From: a virus
Lineage: Duplodnaviria; Heunggongvirae; Uroviricota; Caudoviricetes
Length of the DNA stretch: 47,096 nt
Reading direction: 5' to 3' (one strand)
Virus record (IMG/VR): IMGVR_UViG_2802429246_000002
The notes beneath the pieces are model-generated. The model saw only the letters and a program-made list of their open reading frames with translations, ran no database searches and was not told where the DNA came from. Below are positions 1 to 27,061 of this stretch, in pieces. Positions within the stretch are counted from its first letter, which is position 1, and each line of letters starts with the position of its first letter. Position numbers and translations under genes: made by a program.

Positions 1-159
1 CATTAAATTAATATATATATTTCAATTATATTTTTTATTAATTTATTATTCTGGTGAATTTTAATAAATTAAATCTATTCCTTTATCCGCAATACATTTA
101 CTTTCTTCTTTTGAGGATCTTAAATGTCTTATTTTTCGTAATGTGTACAACAAGGAATA
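1..159. promoter_or_regulatory. AT-rich upstream region of the first lipoprotein gene (putative promoter region)
   Basis: Very AT-rich non-coding stretch immediately upstream of the ORF starting at 160; no ORF. Confidence 0.3.
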
Positions 160-678
160 GTGATGAAATTTAAAAAATGTTTTCTGCCTGTGGCAATTTT
201 AGCGTCATTCACCCTGGCAGGATGCCAGTCAAATGCTGACGACCATGCCGCCGATGTCTATCAAACCGATCAACTGAATACAAAGCAAGAAACTAAAACC
301 GTTAATATTATCTCCATTCTTCCCGCAAAAGTTGCCGTAGATAACTCACAAAATAAACGGAATGCGCAAGCCTTTGGCGCACTTATTGGCGCTGTCGCAG
401 GCGGCGTTATCGGCCATAACGTTGGATCTGGTAGTAACTCCGGAACAACGGCTGGTGCAGTTGGTGGCGGAGCTGTAGGCGCGGCAGCGGGTACTATGGT
501 GAATGATAAAACCTTAGTGGAAGGTGTCTCTTTAACTTATAAGGAAGGCACCAAAGTGTACACCTCCACCCAGGTGGGTAAAGAATGCCAGTTCACAACG
601 GGTTTAGCCGTTGTTATTACCACCACTTATAACGAAACGCGTATTCAGCCAAATACAAAATGTCCTGAAAAGAGCTAA
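160..678 (+). CDS. yfgH: Outer-membrane lipoprotein, glycine-zipper type (YfgH-like)
   Basis: Signal peptide with lipobox LAGC; Gly/Ala-rich zipper GALIGAVAGGVIGHNVG; position two genes from guaA matches the E. coli yfgH-yfgI-guaA neighbourhood as recalled. Confidence 0.6.
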   Translation: MMKFKKCFLPVAILASFTLAGCQSNADDHAADVYQTDQLNTKQETKTVNIISILPAKVAVDNSQNKRNAQAFGALIGAVAGGVIGHNVGSGSNSGTTAGAVGGGAVGAAAGTMVNDKTLVEGVSLTYKEGTKVYTSTQVGKECQFTTGLAVVITTTYNETRIQPNTKCPEKS

Positions 679-693
679 CTATCAGGAGGACTC

Positions 694-1236
694 ATGAAGA
701 AAGTTTTTCTTTGCGCCGCCATATTAGCTGCTGTTAGTAGCCCGGCTTTCGCCTCTTCATTACAGGATCAACTCTCTGCGGTCGCAGAAGCTGAACAGCA
801 AGGCAAAAATGAAGAACAAAGGCAGCATGACGAATGGGTTGCGGAGCGCAACAGGGAAATCCAGCAAGAGAAGCAACGGCGCGCAAACGCTCAGGCCGCA
901 GCGAATAAAAGAGCGGCAGCAGCAGCAGCGGATAAAAAAGCTCGCCAGGATAAACGGGACGCCGAATTCACTGCGGATAAAAAGCGCGATCAAAGTTATG
1001 AAGATGAGCTGCGCAACTTAGAGATTCAGAAGCAAAAACTGGCGCTGGCAAAAGAAGAAGCGCGCGTTAAGCGTGAGAACGAATTTATCGATCAGGAACT
1101 GAAACACAAAGCAGCGCAAACCGATGTTGTACAATCTGAAGCTGACGCTAACAGGAATATGACTGAAGGTGGTCGTGATTTGATGAAAAGCGTGGGTAAA
1201 GCAGAAGAGAATAAATCAGACAGTTGGTTTAATTAA
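694..1236 (+). CDS. yfgI: Secreted coiled-coil protein (YfgI-like)
   Basis: N-terminal signal peptide AFASS; charged K/E/R/Q-rich helical body; RBS AGGAGG upstream; synteny with guaA. Confidence 0.55.
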   Translation: MKKVFLCAAILAAVSSPAFASSLQDQLSAVAEAEQQGKNEEQRQHDEWVAERNREIQQEKQRRANAQAAANKRAAAAAADKKARQDKRDAEFTADKKRDQSYEDELRNLEIQKQKLALAKEEARVKRENEFIDQELKHKAAQTDVVQSEADANRNMTEGGRDLMKSVGKAEENKSDSWFN

Positions 1237-1313
1237 TCGTCTTTCCACTACCAGGCCTGTAATTCGTGAGGATTATGGGCTTTTTAATTGCATAAAAAAA
1301 CCTCCAGTGGATG

Positions 1314-1330
1314 AACAGAGGGTTTTGTTA
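1314..1330. repeat. Putative attL core (direct repeat AACAGAGGGTTnTnTTA)
   Basis: aacagagggttttgtta here vs aacagagggttgtatta at 41854..41870; flanking sequence also shares cataaaaa and aacc motifs. Confidence 0.45.
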
Positions 1331-1488
1331 CCAAAATATGCTGAAGCCTCGTACGAATAGAAAACCTCAGCATTTAGTGTTCGGGTTTATTCCCACTAAA
1401 TTATTTACGACACACATAACCATTTGACTGATAACAACTTTCTGAAACCTGATTTTCACCGTACCGTTTTATATACCGTCACCGGAAA

Positions 1489-1986
1489 TCAGTGCCACGA
1501 TTTTTGCTTCTTCAGTGAATCGTATTGCTGTTCGCAGGATTCTCCTGCAATCCGATACTTTTCAGCCTCAGCTGCTGTTGCGTTGTAAACTCGGTTGCTT
1601 TCTTCAAGCATGTCGGCGAGCACACCGATGACCTTGCTGGCTGGCGTGCCAGTGGGGAAAGATCCGGTATAGTGTTCGGCGAGTCGCTTGGTTTTGTCAA
1701 GCTCGGCGCGCAGGCTGTCAGCAGCGGCATTAGCATGCTCAGCATCAACACGCGCCACATCGATACGGGATTGTGCTTCACGTTCAATTTGTGTTTTCTC
1801 CTGATCACGTTGTGACCTGGCCTTATCATCAGCCTGTTTCTGATCTTCCTGTGCCTGCGCATACCCGGCGTCGTACTGACGAATGCCGTGTGCATTCCAG
1901 GCTACAACTCCTGATATGACCAGAACAGCAAGCATCGCCATGATAACCAACTGTTTCCAGTATGCTTTTGCGAATGCCCAGATCAT
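1489..1986 (-). CDS. Rz-like inner-membrane spanin (i-spanin)
   Basis: N-terminal TM helix followed by long charged coiled coil; start overlaps endolysin stop (ATGA); last gene of lysis cassette. Confidence 0.7.
1512..1763 (-). CDS. Rz1-like outer-membrane lipoprotein spanin embedded in the Rz frame
   Basis: Alternative frame inside the Rz gene encodes [17 protein letters not shown] (lipobox) followed by a Pro-rich segment; start codon choice uncertain. Confidence 0.5.
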   Translation of the reverse strand, partial: SMWRVLMLSMLMPLLTACAPSLTKPSDSPNTIPDLSPLARQPARSSVCSPTCLKKATEFTTQQQLRLKSIGLQENPANSNTIH

Positions 1987-2612
1987 AACGCCAGCACCTT
2001 ACTGGCAGTGATGTATCGCGCGCGCCGGTCATCAATGCCGTTCCGGCCACCATTGATAAGCAGAGTTACACGTGCAATATCTCCGGTATACTTCATGCAG
2101 CCTTTGCTGGAGAAGAACCACGCCGCGCTACGAGCCGCGTATTCGTCCTGCGCAAGCAGTTCAGGACTCTCCAGCAGGTCAACCTTAAGACCGTTTCCAC
2201 AGTCACGATAGTTATTCAAACCGGTAATCTGGATAAGTCCGCGCCCACGGTAGTTCCAGCCATCGCCAGGAGCATTGTTACCCATGCGTTTGCTGTACAC
2301 CAGATTGGCAATCGCTCTCTGGCGCTCAGGTGGCAATGGTGGTTCGCCTGCGCGTCGCCCCAATGCGTTGGCCTGTCCCTGAGTGAGACGCCCAGCCCGA
2401 ACAAAGTTAGCCAGTCCGCTGACGCTGTAGTTGAAATTTTCCTGCAACCGGGTGAAACCTCCAGACTCATGCCCGACCTGAGCAATAAACATTGCCTGAT
2501 CTTCTGGTTTGCTGATACCAAACTCTTTCATCGCAGAAGTTATATGCGAGAACCAGCGTGCGGCCAGCGCCTCGCTAATACCAGCAGCTCGCTGGAATTG
2601 TTTAATCTCCAT
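1983..2612 (-). CDS. Endolysin, glycoside hydrolase family 19 (chitinase-like)
   Basis: Motifs [10 protein letters not shown]...[12 protein letters not shown]...YGGRN typical of GH19 phage endolysins; start taken at MEIKQFQ (internal Met of the longer track ORF). Confidence 0.8.
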
Positions 2613-2805
2613 GTTTAGACCTCGATACTTTAAAAATTTGAACGACGTTACCGCGCGTTTTAATAACCGCAGCGAGCATGACAGCGTTGATAATGACCTC
2701 AGATAAATCCACAGCCATTGGCGTGCGGAACCAGATTGCATAGGCAACACGAACCGGAATACTGGCCGCAGCAACAATCAGGAAATAAGCAAGCCACCCC
2801 CCCAT
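2602..2805 (-). CDS. Small two-TM protein, possible holin/antiholin component
   Basis: 67 aa with two hydrophobic helices; sits between holin-like gene and endolysin; weak RBS. Confidence 0.3.
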
Positions 2806-2895
2806 CTTCGATGTTGAGATCCGTTACGCCGGAATGTGACAACACGAATTGCTATGCCAGTACAAATAACTGCATTGGTGATAAGCAAAAAAAAC

Positions 2896-3300
2896 TCATG
2901 CGTTACCATCGTCTTTTCTCCCCGGAATTAACTCGCGTGGATTATCGGAACGGTGGTAGAGCCATATACCAATACGCACAGCAACAATTGCTGACACGAA
3001 TGCGCCAGCAGAGAAAACAATCCCTTTTTCAAAAGAGTCCTGCGTGATAGTAGGGATCAGGCTGGCTATGCCGATAAGAATTGATGCTGCTGGTTTATAA
3101 AAAAGAAGGCCGCAGAGAAAGCTAAGCATCGACAAGAGTACACGACGACGAATGGGATACTCTACCGCAGAGGTAACAAAAATTACCGCTCCAGCCAAAG
3201 CCCCCAAAGCAACCTCAGGAGGAACTCCTGCTATCACCGCCGCCAGAGAACTCATGCTAAGCCACTGATTTAAAGTTTCACTGGTTAGTTGAGCTGACAT
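2896..3300 (-). CDS. Putative holin (multi-TM, charged C-terminus)
   Basis: About four predicted TM helices and a charged C-terminal tail; directly upstream of endolysin; start taken at ATG 3300 with GGTGGA RBS rather than the track GTG at 3309. Confidence 0.5.
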   Translation of the reverse strand: MSAQLTSETLNQWLSMSSLAAVIAGVPPEVALGALAGAVIFVTSAVEYPIRRRVLLSMLSFLCGLLFYKPAASILIGIASLIPTITQDSFEKGIVFSAGAFVSAIVAVRIGIWLYHRSDNPRELIPGRKDDGNA

Positions 3301-3491
3301 GTTTTCCACCGTTTATATGCATAACTACCTCCTGAACAGTAAAGCATTATGCATGATAAACCATTTATGGTTTTTTGTTACTTCAACATCGTCAATCCCC
3401 TGTTTTCATGCCGATAATAAGGCTCACCTTTTACATAACACTGAAGAAACAACAGTACAGAAATGATTCAAACTATGGAGATCGGGTTGAA

Positions 3492-3516
3492 TACCGCGCC
3501 ATCAAATGGCGCGGTA
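3492..3516. other. Perfect 10-bp stem-loop (taccgcgcca-tcaaa-tggcgcggta)
   Basis: Read directly in sequence between the small membrane gene stop and the holin gene; no adjacent U-tract on either strand. Confidence 0.5.
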
Positions 3517-3520
3517 GCGA

Positions 3521-3817
3521 TCAAATAGAGAAATAAATACAAAAACAAAAAATGACAGGAACAGCAAAATCCAACAGACTTCCCACATCCCACACGCGTG
3601 GGTCAAAACCTCCCCACCATGGCATGTTGATACGTTTCCCTTTCCCAAACTTTTCTATCCAGCGATATTCTGCCTGGGTGTGTTCACGCGCAATGAAGAA
3701 CGTACAACCGGCTATCGCACCGTAAGCCCAGTTTCCTGTTATTATTCCGAAGAAACATTGCACAATTATTGATGCAATAGCATGGACAAAAGGAGAATAG
3801 TCAATATTATTCATCAT
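3521..3817 (-). CDS. Small integral membrane protein (unknown function) downstream of tailspike
   Basis: About 99 aa from MMNNIDY; 2-3 hydrophobic helices; AT-rich codon usage. Confidence 0.5.
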   Translation of the reverse strand: MMNNIDYSPFVHAIASIIVQCFFGIITGNWAYGAIAGCTFFIAREHTQAEYRWIEKFGKGKRINMPWWGGFDPRVWDVGSLLDFAVPVIFCFCIYFSI

Positions 3818-3846
3818 AACACCTTCATGAATAAACCATATTCTGC

Positions 3847-6588
3847 TTACACAGCACAAATCCTGATCGTTGCTGTGATATCAGTTTCAGTGCCATTATT
3901 GAGATATAACCTACCGCCTACAATTGACATCCCAATTTTGGTAGAAACTTCTTCATCTGCAGATGTCACCACCACGTTTGTTTTATTGTAATTACCAAGC
4001 GGAGATTCATCAGTCGAATGCCCTGGCCTCAATATCATTCCTACACCTGCAAAGAAATTAGGGTTCCCATTATTTATAACATCCACACAATAAGATAATG
4101 CGCTTTTACTAAGTGGGATGGATTGACTTGTATGTGCCTTAACCCACATTTCCCATACGTATTCACTTTTACGTATCGCCCCCTCACATGAACCAGATGC
4201 ATGGAATAACTTTCCTGATGATACAGTGTTATTGGTGCCAACAAGAATCATCTGATTTCCACCACCAAAGCCAAAGTTATCACCAAGAGATGGTCCACCA
4301 TTAATCCTTAACATATATGCATCAGTACTGCCTGATGAGGCGTCAGAGTTATCTATATATACAGTGCAATCACTTATAAGAACGCCATCAATCTTATCTG
4401 GCGCAACAGTATTAGTTTGGACAACGACGAACTCTCTGGTGGTAGATTTTGCCGAACAACCTTTAATAATTGTTGGTGTTTCAAGAGTATATGTTTGAGT
4501 AATAAAAATGAAATTACTAGGACGAAGCTTCCGATTAACAGCATTTGTTGCTTTCCACCATTTATTGCTTGATTCGGTTGTTTCGCTAAAGCCATCAATA
4601 TAGTGAGTATCGGTAATAGTAATTCCGCTACCATAATACAAACGAATCGGAAGGTTGCTAAATCCTCTAATCTCGCAACCAGATACTATCTCATTAAAAC
4701 CACGTATAGTTGCGCCATAAAAACAGTCAACTGCCACATTGTCTTTATATTTAGACTCTGCGGCACCACCATGACTACCAAACCCATAGGAAAATTCAGT
4801 CCATCCTTCCGATGGAAATATAATCCCACCAGTATAACCAGTTCCGCCACCACGCATTGTAATGTTGGTTACATTATTGTAGAGAGAACTCCAGTTACTC
4901 CCTCCAATATCAACACCACGCCTACAACAAGATGCATTGATATTGTCCACAGTGCAGTAACTGCTATTGGAAACAGAAACAGCATTACCTGTACCACCAT
5001 CACCATTGAAAACTCTATTGATTCCATACAGAGATGTATCACGAACAGTGCATCTTAAGCAGCCTAACAAGGTAATCCCAGCATTCGGGAAATTTTCCAC
5101 ACTAGCGAAACTGGCAATACCGTTTACGCAATATTCGAAGACAACCCCATCATAAGCTTTTTGTCCGCTAGTTGCATTGGTAACTAACCCGTGTATCGTC
5201 CCAACATGAAAATCTCCAGAAATATTAAATGTAGCAGGATAGACAGCCCAGGCCTCAGCTTGCCTAACCAAACGAAATGTATCTCCTGCAGCAGGTTTAT
5301 TTGGGAATCCAGTGTCAGCATTACTACCAATAGTAAATGTTTTTGTGTCATCATCATATGCTGTAACCATTTTGGTTATACCAGCATTATCTCCCGTTAA
5401 TCCAAGAATTTTATAGAGTGCATCACGAGGTGGTGATGTCACTGAGAAATTTGTAGATGTAAATGATTGCCCACTAGATGCGCCAGTAACTGTAACTGTA
5501 ATATTCCCTCCTGAACGGTAGTAATAATATGCATCCTGATCTAATGTCACATTATTTCCACTAAGTGAAACGACTTCAACAATTTGCCCTTCCTGCCAAC
5601 TTCCTCGGTTATCTCCACGAACAAGGTGGTTATTACGAATAACAAGCAAATCTCCGACAGAAATATCAGACACATCATCAAGAGTCACAGTCTTTTCGCC
5701 CAATGATATATCTCTCGTTATGAAATTATGCAATTTAGTACTTGCAATTCCACCAAGCTTTATTGCTGAACCTTCATATCCTACAACATTATTTGTGCAG
5801 AGCAATTCAACCTTTCCTGATGCCACCCAATCGAAGCAACCATATGGAATGGAAATATCTATTTGTGAAAACAGGTACTTTCCTGCTGTCCATTCCAAAC
5901 GCTTTCCGTTAGATGCGCAGTAAATGATGGCATTTGTTATTGCGTCTGTATCGTCAGTAATGCCATCCCCTTTTGCACCAAAATCGCGAACATTGACGAT
6001 ATCCCGCATCTTATCCTGGAACGTTCTGTATACTGCTCCAGAACCATACTGAATAAACAAACCAAAACCACCAACAACTCCGGCGATTGCAGCATCGACA
6101 TAATTACGCATTGAGCGATTATTTACAGCATCCTGCTCAAGTGATGGATCTGCAAGGTTAGAAATTCTGTTTTGTTTTGCATCGTAATATTTTGCAAGCA
6201 GAGAGGGCTTCATCAATGCACGTCTGAACCACCCAAAACATTGCTGGATCAGCATCGTCAGATAGTCAAAGGCATCCTCATGCACTTCGGGGAAAAATTT
6301 TCCCTGATTGCGAAGGTCTGTCTCCTGCACTACATCAAGCACACGATCTATCGTAATTCGCCATCCAGCAGCAAGCGGAGACGGAAGAACCACAGAACCG
6401 CCACTATAAGTGCCCGCCCCAGTTACCGTATAACCGGTATCCAGAACCAATTCTGTTACGTTCCCGTTCAGGTCAGACACCTGAACAACCAGGTCTGATT
6501 TTCTGAAAATTCGAAAAGTATACGGAAACGATGTCGTAACGCCGTTACCTGTGTATTCGTTGTGGTCAACTTCGGTTGAGACCGTCAT
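3847..6588 (-). CDS. Tailspike protein with pectate-lyase-like beta-helix (probable polysaccharide depolymerase)
   Basis: 913 aa; conserved podovirus tailspike N-terminal head-binding region; RDFGAKGDGITDDTDAI beta-helix motif; Ser/Thr/Gly/Asn-rich repetitive body. Confidence 0.8.
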   Translation of the reverse strand: MTVSTEVDHNEYTGNGVTTSFPYTFRIFRKSDLVVQVSDLNGNVTELVLDTGYTVTGAGTYSGGSVVLPSPLAAGWRITIDRVLDVVQETDLRNQGKFFPEVHEDAFDYLTMLIQQCFGWFRRALMKPSLLAKYYDAKQNRISNLADPSLEQDAVNNRSMRNYVDAAIAGVVGGFGLFIQYGSGAVYRTFQDKMRDIVNVRDFGAKGDGITDDTDAITNAIIYCASNGKRLEWTAGKYLFSQIDISIPYGCFDWVASGKVELLCTNNVVGYEGSAIKLGGIASTKLHNFITRDISLGEKTVTLDDVSDISVGDLLVIRNNHLVRGDNRGSWQEGQIVEVVSLSGNNVTLDQDAYYYYRSGGNITVTVTGASSGQSFTSTNFSVTSPPRDALYKILGLTGDNAGITKMVTAYDDDTKTFTIGSNADTGFPNKPAAGDTFRLVRQAEAWAVYPATFNISGDFHVGTIHGLVTNATSGQKAYDGVVFEYCVNGIASFASVENFPNAGITLLGCLRCTVRDTSLYGINRVFNGDGGTGNAVSVSNSSYCTVDNINASCCRRGVDIGGSNWSSLYNNVTNITMRGGGTGYTGGIIFPSEGWTEFSYGFGSHGGAAESKYKDNVAVDCFYGATIRGFNEIVSGCEIRGFSNLPIRLYYGSGITITDTHYIDGFSETTESSNKWWKATNAVNRKLRPSNFIFITQTYTLETPTIIKGCSAKSTTREFVVVQTNTVAPDKIDGVLISDCTVYIDNSDASSGSTDAYMLRINGGPSLGDNFGFGGGNQMILVGTNNTVSSGKLFHASGSCEGAIRKSEYVWEMWVKAHTSQSIPLSKSALSYCVDVINNGNPNFFAGVGMILRPGHSTDESPLGNYNKTNVVVTSADEEVSTKIGMSIVGGRLYLNNGTETDITATIRICAV

Positions 6589-6691
6589 GTTAAATCTCCA
6601 GATAGTCGCAGCACCCGTTGCGCCGCATATCTGGTTATTCTATTACCTGAAAAACCACATATGGATAGAAAGACTGTAAATACGAATAGAT

Positions 6692-6708
6692 ATTACCTTT
6701 CAGGTAAT
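6692..6708. promoter_or_regulatory. 17-bp inverted repeat attacct-ttc-aggtaat (operator-like site A)
   Basis: Exact 7-bp arms, reverse complements of each other; member of a family of at least 13 sites. Confidence 0.6.
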
Positions 6709-6744
6709 TTGCAAAACGTGCTGGATAGCAAACAAATTATTTGC

Positions 6745-6764
6745 TACTGTATAAATATACAGTT
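6745..6764. promoter_or_regulatory. Putative LexA (SOS) box TACTGTATAAATATACAGTT
   Basis: CTGT-N8-ACAG with AT-rich spacer, near-consensus, about 20 bp upstream of the ATG at 6784 with GGAG RBS in between. Confidence 0.7.
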
Positions 6765-6783
6765 ATTGCATGGAGAAGATAAG

Positions 6784-7041
6784 ATGCAGCAGTATCACTA
6801 TCCACTGGAAGACGGATTTACCGAAAGGATTCACACGCCGGGAGGCGTCAGATCACTGGTGGAGGGATCGCACTTGATGAAATTACTCCGGGATCTCGAT
6901 AAGGATGGATTTAATGTCGATGGCCCACTTGCCGAACTGACTGCACTGATTAACTACGTCACCAGCTCACAGATGTCTATGCAGGATCTGCAAACACATC
7001 TCGACTATTGTGCCGAACAATTACGAAAACAAACCCGGTAA
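6784..7041 (+). CDS. Small antirepressor-like protein (homolog of the C-terminal domain of the antirepressor at 8190..8885)
   Basis: 85 aa from MQQYHYPLEDGF; aligns with C-terminus of the 8190 ORF (Y..PL..G...IH.P.GV..L.E.S.LM.LL..L..DG..V.G..AELT); LexA box upstream. Confidence 0.6.
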   Translation: MQQYHYPLEDGFTERIHTPGGVRSLVEGSHLMKLLRDLDKDGFNVDGPLAELTALINYVTSSQMSMQDLQTHLDYCAEQLRKQTR

Positions 7042-7063: not shown

Positions 7064-7792
7064 CTATCGTTTCGCTTTGTGCTCGTCCCAGCACGTTTTG
7101 CACCATGCCATTAAGCCGTCCGCATTTTGATTATTAGGGTAAAAGCTGGTTCGTTTTCTGCGGACATTACAAATTGGGCACCACTTCATATGACGTGTAT
7201 TCTTTGGGCCATCGAGACACCTTGCACACCACTTAGTCAATCCATCTGGATTTTTTGACGATTTCCTGAATTTTTCATATGGAAGGTTTATTCTGCATCG
7301 CAAGCACTGCTTGCTACCGCTTGAAACTCTGTTAGCTGATTCTTCTTTTGGCGGCGATACAGAAGATATTCTTGCTGGCTCTGATACTGCCTGAGGTGCT
7401 TTTTTAAATGACTGAGACGATATGTCATCACCAGGGAATCTTCCATGATATGCCGGACGCGTTGACACTCCAGGTGGAAGCTCAGCTGTAAACGGCTTTG
7501 GCTGAATCAGTTGCCTCTCTTTTGCTAACTCCTGCTGTTTATAATATGTCTGGATTACCGCACTATCATAAGCAGGAGGTGCGGAAATATTAGGCGCATT
7601 ACCTCCAGTTTTTTGAAACTGAGTAGAGGTGTGTTCTATCACCTGTGTACGATTAATCGTTATCTCCCCATCTTCGGTCTTTATCGTTTTGTTATGATTA
7701 ACGACCGTACGATCAGAGATCTTAGTCTTGTTCTGGTTGATAACGTAAATAATCACCGTAACCACACCAACAACTATCCAGAAAACTTCCAT
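7064..7792 (-). CDS. Membrane-anchored protein with Pro-rich linker and tandem C-terminal zinc-ribbon repeats
   Basis: N-terminal TM helix; two repeats of C-x2-C-x(13-17)-DGL-x2-WC-x2-C; GAGGAA RBS; operator-like site 20 bp upstream. Confidence 0.6.
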   Translation of the reverse strand: MEVFWIVVGVVTVIIYVINQNKTKISDRTVVNHNKTIKTEDGEITINRTQVIEHTSTQFQKTGGNAPNISAPPAYDSAVIQTYYKQQELAKERQLIQPKPFTAELPPGVSTRPAYHGRFPGDDISSQSFKKAPQAVSEPARISSVSPPKEESANRVSSGSKQCLRCRINLPYEKFRKSSKNPDGLTKWCARCLDGPKNTRHMKWCPICNVRRKRTSFYPNNQNADGLMAWCKTCWDEHKAKR

Positions 7793-8992: not shown

Positions 8993-9202
8993 ATGGGATT
9001 TTGGTTCGCTCGTACAAAAACGAGGGATAATGCACCCAGCCCTCAGGCAAAAAATGCAGAAGTTCCGGCGTCAGCGCAGGTTAACAAGCGTGGTGGAGTA
9101 TATATCTCATCACAGCAAATTTCTGAGCTTCCTGAGGTTAAGGAGATGCGTCGTCTCGCTGCTGCAATTGTTAAACAGGATCTTGCCACTGTAAGGAAGT
9201 AG
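8993..9202 (+). CDS. Small soluble protein (69 aa), first gene of a two-gene cargo operon
   Basis: Strong RBS GAGGAGGAG; stop overlaps start of the downstream membrane protein gene (TAGTG); no recognizable domain. Confidence 0.55.
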   Translation: MGFWFARTKTRDNAPSPQAKNAEVPASAQVNKRGGVYISSQQISELPEVKEMRRLAAAIVKQDLATVRK

Positions 9203-10068
9203 TGTTGCTAGCTCTTCTAATTATCCCAATCCTGGTTAGCGGTTATATTATGATAACCGCTAACCAGTATCATTATTTCCGTTTATACCGACACGAAGGC
9301 CAGCTTCTTTATATGAAAGTAGCGGCACTAGGTACATATTGCCTTGTTGCATCAGTAATAATTGCAGCCGCTATAAAATATAAATGGCCTGATTTTCACC
9401 TAGTTCACGATATGGTGGAAACTTTTAATGTAACATCAAAACCAGAAACAGATAGAATTTACATGTGGCTGCTTCTTCTCTCAGCCACATCCATTTGCTT
9501 CTCTTTGTGTTATGTGTCTGTTGTGTGGGTGAAAGATTTTCTTCTTGGTTGTTTTTATAAACGTGATATTTACGAGCAAAAAACAGAGGCAATGAAGGCC
9601 AGAGTACTGCGAAAAACTTACTCGCAGGGTTCTTTAGACTTACTATTGCTTGATGCTATTGAATCGGATCCTAAACGACCAATGCTGATTACTTTATCAT
9701 CAAACAAAGTGTATGTTGGAATAATAAATGGTTCTGGTGAACCAACGGAAAATCAGGGTCCGCATCAGCACATATCTTTTGTTCCTTTAATGTCAGGATA
9801 CAGGAACAAAGAAAACTTATCTGTCACATTCACTAATGCTTATCCAGGAGAAATACAGGTCAAGCGGACTGCAGCAATAAGAGGAATTAGCAGAAAGAAA
9901 GTGCCAGGACTTGAGATCATGGTGTCTATTGACGAAATAAGTTATATATCATGGTTTGATTTTGAAGTATATAAAGCAACAAATAACAAAGTAGAATCCA
10001 GGGGGCACGTTATTCGTGTTACCAAAAATGGAAGAAATATATATCAAAGAAATAGCAAAAAAGAATAG
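9202..10068 (+). CDS. Integral membrane protein (3-4 N-terminal TM helices) with ~150 aa C-terminal soluble domain; unknown function
   Basis: 288 aa; GTG start overlapping upstream stop; AT-rich codon usage; followed by intrinsic terminator. Confidence 0.65.
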   Translation: MLLALLIIPILVSGYIMITANQYHYFRLYRHEGQLLYMKVAALGTYCLVASVIIAAAIKYKWPDFHLVHDMVETFNVTSKPETDRIYMWLLLLSATSICFSLCYVSVVWVKDFLLGCFYKRDIYEQKTEAMKARVLRKTYSQGSLDLLLLDAIESDPKRPMLITLSSNKVYVGIINGSGEPTENQGPHQHISFVPLMSGYRNKENLSVTFTNAYPGEIQVKRTAAIRGISRKKVPGLEIMVSIDEISYISWFDFEVYKATNNKVESRGHVIRVTKNGRNIYQRNSKKE

Positions 10069-26984: not shown

Positions 26985-27061
26985 GTGGCATTAGCTCAGC
27001 TGGACAGAGCAACCGCCTTCTAAGCGGTTGGTCGCAGGTTCGAATCCTGCATGCCACGCCA
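26985..27061 (+). tRNA. tRNA-Arg (anticodon UCU), phage-encoded
   Basis: Manual fold: acceptor GTGGCAT/ATGCCAC, D-stem GCTC/GAGC, anticodon stem ACCGC/GCGGT with loop CTTCTAA, T-stem GCAGG/CCTGC with loop TTCGAAT, discriminator G, encoded CCA; sequence differs from E. coli argU. Confidence 0.85.

Follow-up and report, generated by a model that had tools for sequence, protein, structure and literature searches.

A small membrane-protein gene as conserved 3' boundary and crossover site of receptor-binding cassettes in an epsilon15-type Escherichia prophage and other temperate phages

The 47,096-nucleotide (nt) virus record IMGVR_UViG_2802429246_000002 (the window) contains an entire prophage, ~40 kb long and belonging to the epsilon15/phiV10 type (Uetakevirus), and positions 3521–6588 are its host-range module, in which an exchangeable tailspike gene is followed by a gene for a small membrane protein. 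A preliminary description of this segment had proposed a depolymerase-type tailspike and a membrane protein behind it, and its boundaries are exact: two adjacent minus-strand genes fill the segment. Neither is a chance open reading frame (ORF), the tailspike matching tail and tailspike families (PHROG, E 1e-145) as well as PF12708 and PF24149, and the small ORF matching phrog_1443 and homologues in 422 clusters. Absent from that description is what we regard as the main point, namely that the small gene is a very widespread conserved 3' flank of receptor-binding cassettes and the joint at which these cassettes recombine. Its role as conserved flank and crossover site is established, as are the identity and modular architecture of the tailspike.

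The small gene is a chimera of three parts with different affiliations (Table 1). Where an epsilon15-like and a P22-like phage carry the same receptor-binding module, their DNA is ~100% identical throughout the module and for ~240 nt into the small gene, and identity collapses over that gene's last ~55 nt; where the backbone is the same and the modules differ, identity starts 25–75 nt into the small gene and runs on into the backbone. The cluster table gives the same picture for the protein, its N-terminal part tracking the module and its C-terminal tail the backbone, with tails ending ...CFCIYFSI in epsilon15-like phages and ...GCLLVWILAS in P22-like phages. Only the core of the gene (3555–3739) matches E. 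coli genomes widely, and synonymous diversity is halved across codons 28–57. Identical types of helix 1 are found with unrelated modules, and vice versa. On the left side, DNA identity to the Uetakeviruses spans only the first ~588 nt of the tailspike gene (to window position ~6001) and picks up again inside the small gene. We conclude with high confidence that the module and the first 25–80 codons of the small gene move together between backbones and that the crossover lies in the conserved core; the crossovers are located at the junction of anchor and module on one side and in the small-gene core on the other. The identity profiles and cluster table therefore define the exchanged unit as tailspike residues ~197–913 plus the spacer and the small gene's 5' part, and with the crossover inside its core the small gene serves as the right-hand homology anchor of the cassette.

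Short motifs that flank receptor-binding domains and possibly aid their swapping have been described in lytic coliphage genera, and are absent from Uetakevirus and Lederbergvirus prophages (Pas et al. 2023, PMC10408124). As in those genera, conserved sequence is present here on both sides of the module and may be a site of recombination across genera; however, those motifs are 20–95 nt long and the downstream one is non-coding, whereas here the flank is a protein-coding gene conserved across the Proteobacteria. In the literature we found no description of the small gene as a cassette flank or crossover site.

The small gene is recorded at 434 loci in IMG/VR, and in all 80 of the best-scoring loci, which were retrieved, it lies directly 3' of a receptor-binding gene and on the same strand. 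The backbones of these loci are epsilon15-like, P22-like and lambdoid, and the spacing between the two genes ranges from a 4-nt overlap (ATGA) to 76 nt, with ~287 nt in lambdoid prophages, where an extra small ORF lies in between. The upstream partners fall into 16 receptor-binding protein sequence clusters with at least eight distinct receptor-binding C-termini, distributed over epsilon15, P22, lambda Stf and short coiled-coil fibre types. Among phage records the gene is present in Uetakeviruses, Lederbergviruses and many lambdoid phages; in phiv142-3 it likewise directly follows the receptor-binding gene, in Gally the order is tailspike, small gene, integrase, and in phage 21 it is side tail fibre, a 92-aa ORF, small gene. 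The ORF of ~92 aa in the lambdoid gap is itself conserved (phage 21, locus L004 4710–4988, and loci L043, L052, L060 and L070) and is possibly a fibre chaperone. A P2-like Aeromonas prophage, found separately, has a copy that overlaps by ATGA the stop codon of a tail-fibre gene with a PF12571 domain, and in a Desulfovibrio prophage the gene follows a 935-aa spike gene encoding DFGAKGDG, a motif as in the present tailspike. The position immediately 3' of a receptor-binding gene is thus a property of temperate phages of all three tail types (podo-, sipho- and myoviruses), and we state this too with high confidence.

Beyond these loci, a scan of one genome per species recovered the family in Escherichia, Leclercia, Silvania, Pantoea, Aeromonas, Comamonas, Acidovorax, Halomonas, Desulfovibrio and many Sphingomonadales, so that it spans the alpha-, beta-, gamma- and delta-proteobacteria. 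The gene is present in 35% of complete E. coli genomes (1,926 of 5,426), with 3,999 copies in total and up to seven per genome; in each row listed the product is a 'hypothetical protein'. The Sphingomonadales copies have a GC content at third codon positions (GC3) equal to that of their neighbours, and in two genomes (a Sphingomonas, L151, and a metagenome-assembled genome of an unclassified pseudomonadotan with a sphingomonad-like copy, L145) ligA precedes them; on both grounds they look native to the chromosome. In two Aeromonas chromosomes (L091, L096) the gene is a low-GC3 single-gene insert with pirin on one side and a RIO-type kinase gene on the other. The native-looking Sphingomonadales copies and those in Aeromonas chromosomes together indicate that the family is older and broader than a prophage role. 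No conserved neighbour of the chromosomal copies was found, the adjoining genes varying (ligA, peptidyl-prolyl isomerase, pirin).

The encoded protein is within one or two residues of the ~99 aa first reported. Its upstream start codon (ATG 3817) lies 29 nt past the tailspike stop codon, with GAAGGTG, which resembles a ribosome-binding site, 2 nt ahead of it. Residues 5–98 align to positions 1–94 of the 97 in the phrog_1443 profile (E 8e-50), so that the protein is a full-length member of that family; the 422 clusters of homologues were counted at 90% identity, and a profile search of 1.84 billion representatives gave 435 clusters at 50% identity. The membrane character that had been proposed is seen in the predicted model (mean pLDDT 84.6), which has three hydrophobic helices at residues 8–27, 30–56 and 78–97. 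Conservation peaks not in the helices but at R44–W76 (REHTQAEYRWI..G.GKR.NMPWWGGFD.R.W); D6, H12, Q20 and D83 in the helices are also conserved, and 16 residues are invariant between this protein and 97 homologues. There is no match in Pfam (E <= 10) or NCBIfam (E <= 1), no relative in PADLOC or the PDB, and no similarity to annotated exclusion or defence families (Sie/Imm/Cor-type families of PHROG; PADLOC). The best 150 of the 435 clusters are all standalone proteins of ~60–140 aa with no domain fusions. Literature searches on the peptide motifs, on phiv142-3 and on tailspike-adjacent membrane proteins returned no characterisation of the protein.

Two candidate identities were set aside. The sequence IAGC (residues 35–38) resembles a lipobox, but there is no positively charged N-region, the cysteine is 38 residues in, and it is missing from distant homologues, which argues against a lipoprotein. 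A holin is similarly disfavoured, as the protein has no charged C-terminal tail and the P22-like and lambdoid copies are not beside lysis genes. The Gifsy defence protein GiPD474 is an ATPase and unrelated.

The tailspike is an ordinary member of a known modular family, already catalogued, with a rare specificity. The 913-aa protein begins MTVSTEVDHNEYTGNG, and its gene has the location of Uetakevirus tailspike genes, near the integrase end, preceded by the divergent epsilon15p19-like gene and followed by the lysis genes (holin, endolysin, spanin). The conserved N-terminal particle-binding region of the preliminary description is borne out: the anchor is homologous to that of phiV10 gp25 and epsilon15 gp20, its DNA is 94–97% identical to that of phiv142-3, ZX5 and other Uetakeviruses and 90% identical to the start of the tail-fibre gene in phiV10, PHROG tail families span residues 1–244 (E 1e-145), and residues 1–205 match the N-terminus of Dpo31/Dpo36 in the PDB (E 1.9e-31). 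The beta-helix body also holds, with a PF12708 match above the cut-off that includes DFGAKGDGITDDTDAI (residues 202–217, nt 5938–5985) and with the modelled fold. G207, D208, D212 and T214 are invariant in an alignment of 11 tailspike sequences, as are many Asp, Glu, Arg, His and Tyr residues. The marginal PF24149 'Rider' match recurs in the relatives P0002–P0007, whose scores are 20–27 bits.

An AlphaFold model of the tailspike built on 11 homologues is confident over residues 195–913, which are nearly all beta and form a beta-helix, and the monomer fold is compatible with a trimeric spike that cleaves a host surface polysaccharide. Foldseek matches at E ~1e-13 include the Klebsiella K1 lyase (7w1c), K64-1 S2-4 (9k4a), Pseudomonas LKA1 gp49 (4ru4) and phi297 gp61 (4ru5), and Acinetobacter AP22 gp54 (4y9v). 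The beta-helix fold is shared with these solved depolymerases, but identity is only 10–18% and their virion anchors differ, and neither substrate nor catalytic residues can be inferred from them. The receptor-binding module is rare, with only 11 related clusters among 5.8 billion proteins; no carrier was found in phage records or in complete E. coli genomes, and for the latter reason no serotype can be associated with the tailspike. Its relatives sit on other anchors, including the P22 head-binding domain, the Ackermannviridae Tail_spike_N, a myovirus baseplate and a siphovirus-like tail tip, and carry PF09008 and PF18668 or follow Baseplate_J. The tailspikes of phiV10, epsilon15 and phiv142-3 have in common with the present one the ~196-aa anchor, the location between the divergent 85-aa gene and the lysis cassette, and a beta-helix module; the module here, however, is unrelated to theirs in DNA and protein, rare, and known from database entries alone.

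The tailspike very probably binds and cleaves a surface polysaccharide of its Escherichia host, either O-antigen or capsule, and thereby sets host range. The earlier proposal of a host-range determinant that degrades polysaccharide stands as far as the exchangeable host-range module is concerned; O-antigen as the substrate is less secure, since the closest structures are capsule or O-antigen lyases together with hydrolases, and a capsule is equally possible. It is conceivable, although we would not favour it, that the tailspike is a capsule-specific polysaccharide lyase (for K-antigen or a colanic-acid-like polymer) and not an O-antigen hydrolase, as the lyases among the Foldseek matches would suggest. 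Hydrolase structures (GH87, GH28 and the Det7, HK620 and Sf6 spikes) score about as well as the lyases, no catalytic residues are assigned in the tailspike, and the Uetakevirus spikes studied to date are O-antigen specific (PMC10408124). As lyases and hydrolases score alike, the fold is compatible with either chemistry and with O-antigen or capsule as the substrate. The model of residues 1–194 is unreliable, since different anchors were mixed in the alignment.

The slot behind the receptor-binding gene has other occupants where the small gene is lacking. In phiV10 it is filled by oac, and in an epsilon15-like Salmonella phage by a gene of the O-antigen-ligase family (Wzy-like). A P22-like prophage with a 48%-identical relative of the module (locus L164) has there, on the strand opposite to the tailspike, a 428-aa DUF6395 gene (5676–6962). 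The small gene does not follow the module relatives on P22-like, sipho-like and myo-like backbones, and judged from these sequences it appears to be dispensable for the module. In virulent-phage cassettes the only copies are decayed and unannotated, directly after spike or endosialidase genes in three unrelated groups: Kuttervirus vB_SalA_KFSST3 (PP994976.1; locus L160, 3998–4170) has a copy with an internal stop that is truncated after EHTQAEYRWIAL, and phage HC6 (L162) and the N4-like Gamaleyavirus PBM-2 (L163) have a frameshifted remnant (3415–3596) after an endosialidase-type gene. These remnants have the appearance of leftovers from cassettes that came out of temperate phages.

Module independence, decay in virulent phages and the Oac and Wzy-like occupants of the slot together argue against an assembly chaperone and for a role in the temperate lifestyle. 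We suggest tentatively that the small protein is an inner-membrane protective factor of a new family, positionally like cor, llp, oac and gtr. Its gene is very probably co-transcribed with that of the tailspike. The protein itself would not be needed to make the spike and would act from the inner membrane to shield infected or lysogenic cells from renewed attack by phages, by superinfection exclusion or by a general alteration of the envelope. If receptor-independent, such protection would either stop phage DNA or ejection proteins on entry at the inner membrane or broadly alter surface glycans that depend on undecaprenyl phosphate (Und-P). A receptor-modification or exclusion role, already raised in the preliminary description, is positionally plausible by analogy: cor (phi80, N15, HK022), llp (T5), oac (phiV10, Sf6), gtrABC (P22) and wzy/iap (epsilon15, D3) also lie beside a receptor-binding gene in a temperate accessory slot. 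The small protein, however, has no sequence or fold similarity to any of these; Cor and Llp are lipoproteins and it is not, its size is far below that of an acyl- or glycosyl-transferase, and in contrast to receptor-linked protection genes its gene is on the spike strand, often translationally coupled, and associated with several receptor types. The cassette with a protective small protein is nonetheless the explanation we prefer as a whole, with somewhat more confidence than doubt. The stronger proposition, that the protein founds a new and very common inner-membrane family that confers receptor-independent protection and has a crossover site for module trade built into its gene, we consider rather unlikely.

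Several observations weigh against the preferred explanation. Most of the retrieved loci are E. coli prophages, and some are near-duplicates, the number of unique upstream windows being 42. Membrane topology of the small protein is ambiguous by charge counts. The native-looking chromosomal copies in Sphingomonadales, together with an intact distant copy in a virulent Aeromonas jumbo phage that is not beside a receptor-binding gene, show that the family is not confined to prophage exclusion. No sigma-70-like promoter above background was found upstream of the small gene in the 42 unique cassettes and the window, by a consensus scan that is blind to weak or non-sigma-70 promoters and to read-through, and in some cassettes the gene overlaps the tailspike stop codon; expression in the lysogen is therefore unsupported, and conversion and exclusion roles usually need it. 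The lack of an own promoter and the tight coupling to the spike gene argue in particular against a classical, independently expressed conversion moron, a view further weakened by location on the tailspike strand, the lack of similarity to known conversion or exclusion families, and association with several receptor-binding modules.

A more specific proposal is that the small protein is a serotype-conversion factor that alters or shortens O-antigen or capsule by way of Wzy, Wzz, WaaL, Wzx or Und-P-linked intermediates, so that lysogens lose the tailspike receptor. The small gene occupies the exact slot of oac in phiV10 and of the Wzy-like gene in the epsilon15-like phage, and in P22-like phages it lies between tailspike and int, presumably where P22 carries gtrABC. 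Small hydrophobic Wzy inhibitors are known from phages D3 and epsilon15, every upstream partner is a receptor-binding protein of glycan type, and helix 1 co-varies with the receptor-binding module. The same helix-1 types, however, are shared across unrelated modules, so this co-variation looks like physical linkage, and the conserved part of the protein is identical across phages of different target serogroups. The family moreover looks native in Sphingomonadales, which are not known to have classical lipopolysaccharide, and P2-like and jumbo phages have it as well; the protein resembles none of Oac, Gtr and Wzy, and no own promoter was detected for its gene. The preliminary description had reported no large acyltransferase-type conversion gene, and we concur, finding no Pfam acyltransferase, Gtr or Wzy domain in the slot between tailspike and holin or in 10 other accessory ORFs. 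Serotype conversion by the small protein is in our view improbable.

We rate as quite improbable a role in the lytic cycle, in which the protein would be made late with the tailspike as a helper of spike or fibre assembly, a factor against trapping on debris, or a component of lysis timing. The arrangement invites such a reading: the gene is on the same strand at 0–76 nt spacing or with ATGA overlap in at least four phage architectures, has no detected promoter, occupies the classical position of a tail-fibre assembly gene, and in Uetakeviruses is directly ahead of the lysis cassette. Lambda tfa, P2 G and T4 gp38 likewise follow the fibre gene immediately, share its strand and co-vary in part with the fibre C-terminus; the small protein, in contrast, is an integral membrane protein, is apparently dispensable for the module and decays in virulent phages, and it has no Pfam match to the Caudo_TAP or Tfa chaperone families. 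Relatives of the module do without it in P22-like, sipho-like and myo-like phages, virulent phages that took up such cassettes have let the gene decay, cytoplasmic beta-helix trimers are unlikely to be chaperoned by a protein integral to the membrane, and in P22-like and lambdoid phages the gene is not beside the lysis genes.

The least probable alternative is that in E. coli-type phages the gene persists mainly as a block of DNA homology that promotes cassette exchange, its protein adding little or no fitness: the crossovers do map within it, the core is 93–100% identical in DNA over unrelated backbones with synonymous diversity halved, genomes have several copies, fragments have been carried into virulent phages, and in lytic genera motifs of homology that aid swapping have been reported at the flanks (PMC10408124), but all 80 prophage copies are intact ORFs (94–104 aa, with one read-through), and TQAEYRW and MPWWGG are kept across alpha-, beta-, gamma- and delta-proteobacteria at 40–60% identity, where DNA homology is gone, which indicates purifying selection on the protein.

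The nearest phages to the prophage are the Uetakeviruses phiv142-3, EC.W1-9, HEMP4, ZX5 and phiV10, and its structural genes are on the minus strand. The lysis genes begin ~210 nt past a stem-loop at the end of the small gene (Table 1), which has no U-tract and was not scored as an intrinsic terminator; it may mark the end of the transcript, or act as an attenuator or stabiliser in place of a terminator. Host yfgI and yfgH lie beyond the lysis cassette, and the long ORFs of the right flank (41900–46561) we take to be guaA, guaB and xseA, so that the prophage is integrated between yfgI and the putative guaA. The left flank (window 1–1400, yfgH/yfgI), which is the flank that was compared, is only ~89–95% identical to E. 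coli, and the exact tailspike protein is recorded from 'unclassified Escherichia' (RefSeq WP_236942223.1, assembly GCA_002965865.1); on these two grounds we place the source in a cryptic or non-coli Escherichia lineage.

Table 1. Features of the host-range module and its surroundings in the window (positions of the 47,096-nt stretch; aa, amino acids).
Feature	Coordinates	Strand	Basis or remarks
Tailspike gene, 913 aa, RefSeq annotation 'glycosyl hydrolase family 28-related protein'	3847..6588	-	ORF list; PHROG tail/tailspike families E 1e-145 to 1e-113; exact look-up
N-terminal virion anchor, aa 1–196, Uetakevirus (epsilon15/phiV10) type; conserved left flank of the exchange cassette	6001..6588	-	DNA identity and PDB match
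Exchangeable receptor-binding/depolymerase module, aa 197–913: right-handed parallel beta-helix, 'Rider'-like insertion, C-terminal beta domain	3847..6000	-	
PF12708 N-terminal beta-helix motif, aa 197–241, including DFGAKGDGITDDTDAI	5866..6000	-	Pfam E 7.5e-10, 39.4 bits against cut-off 27
Insertion domain like the K1-lyase Rider, aa 290–359	5512..5721	-	PF24149 E 1.8e-6, 28.7 bits against cut-off 27, marginal
Small three-helix membrane protein gene, 98 aa (ATG 3817) or 97 aa (ATG 3814, source-assembly call); phrog_1443	3521..3817	-	
Small gene, 5' part, ~codons 1–26, helix 1; moves with the receptor-binding module	3740..3817	-	Pairwise DNA identity profiles; cluster table; E. coli matches end at query position 219
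Small gene, core, ~codons 27–88 (GNWAYG...REHTQAEYRWI...NMPWWGGFD...); recombination joint, common to all backbones and cassettes	3555..3739	-	93–100% DNA identity in all pairs compared
Small gene, 3' tail, end of helix 3; moves with the phage backbone	3521..3554	-	Identity profiles and cluster table
Stem-loop starting on the small gene's TGA (3521–3523) and running 3'	3480..3522	-	11-bp GC-rich stem, -22.5 kcal/mol, z -4.4
Lysis cassette: holin-like protein (PF16931), PF05449 holin, GH19 endolysin, Rz-like spanin; downstream of the small gene	1489..3309	-	Pfam/PHROG matches
Intergenic region between tailspike start and divergent 85-aa gene; putative promoter of the tailspike, small-gene and lysis unit	6589..6783	.	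Inferred from sequence and the terminator of the upstream gene
Divergent gene, 85 aa, epsilon15p19-like	6784–7041	+	Source-assembly gene calls
Tyrosine integrase	40468–41718		

Other accessory genes are present in the prophage. Between the tailspike and the structural genes are a 288-aa ORF (9202–10068, plus strand) with N-terminal hydrophobic helices and no match in Pfam or PADLOC, and a 242-aa ORF (7064–7792, minus strand) with repeated CxxC zinc-ribbon motifs, membership in phrog_6762 and weak endonuclease VII/Lar-like matches; both could be defence or anti-defence morons. A gene for a DNA methyltransferase of the MT-A70 family (39611–40273, plus strand) adjoins the integrase gene and is likely an anti-restriction or epigenetic moron. 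A tRNA-Arg gene (anticodon TCT; 26985–27061, plus strand) lies inside the prophage in a low-GC patch (27–28 kb, GC 0.42) at the boundary of the structural and early regions.

The tailspike itself is a routine find, which adds a new specificity and one more module for the prediction and engineering of host range in non-coli Escherichia. The small gene is among the commonest unannotated genes of E. coli prophages, is tied to the receptor-binding genes of podo-, sipho- and myovirus prophages, and forms the right-hand limit of the segment swapped in host-range changes; even in virulent Ackermannviridae, Schitoviridae and one siphovirus, relics of it mark the cassettes of spikes and endosialidases. 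This boundary helps to delimit natural cassettes for engineering and to trace the origins of receptor-binding modules. Should the small protein indeed be an exclusion or envelope factor, part of the phage resistance that prophages confer on a large fraction of E. coli would be explained.

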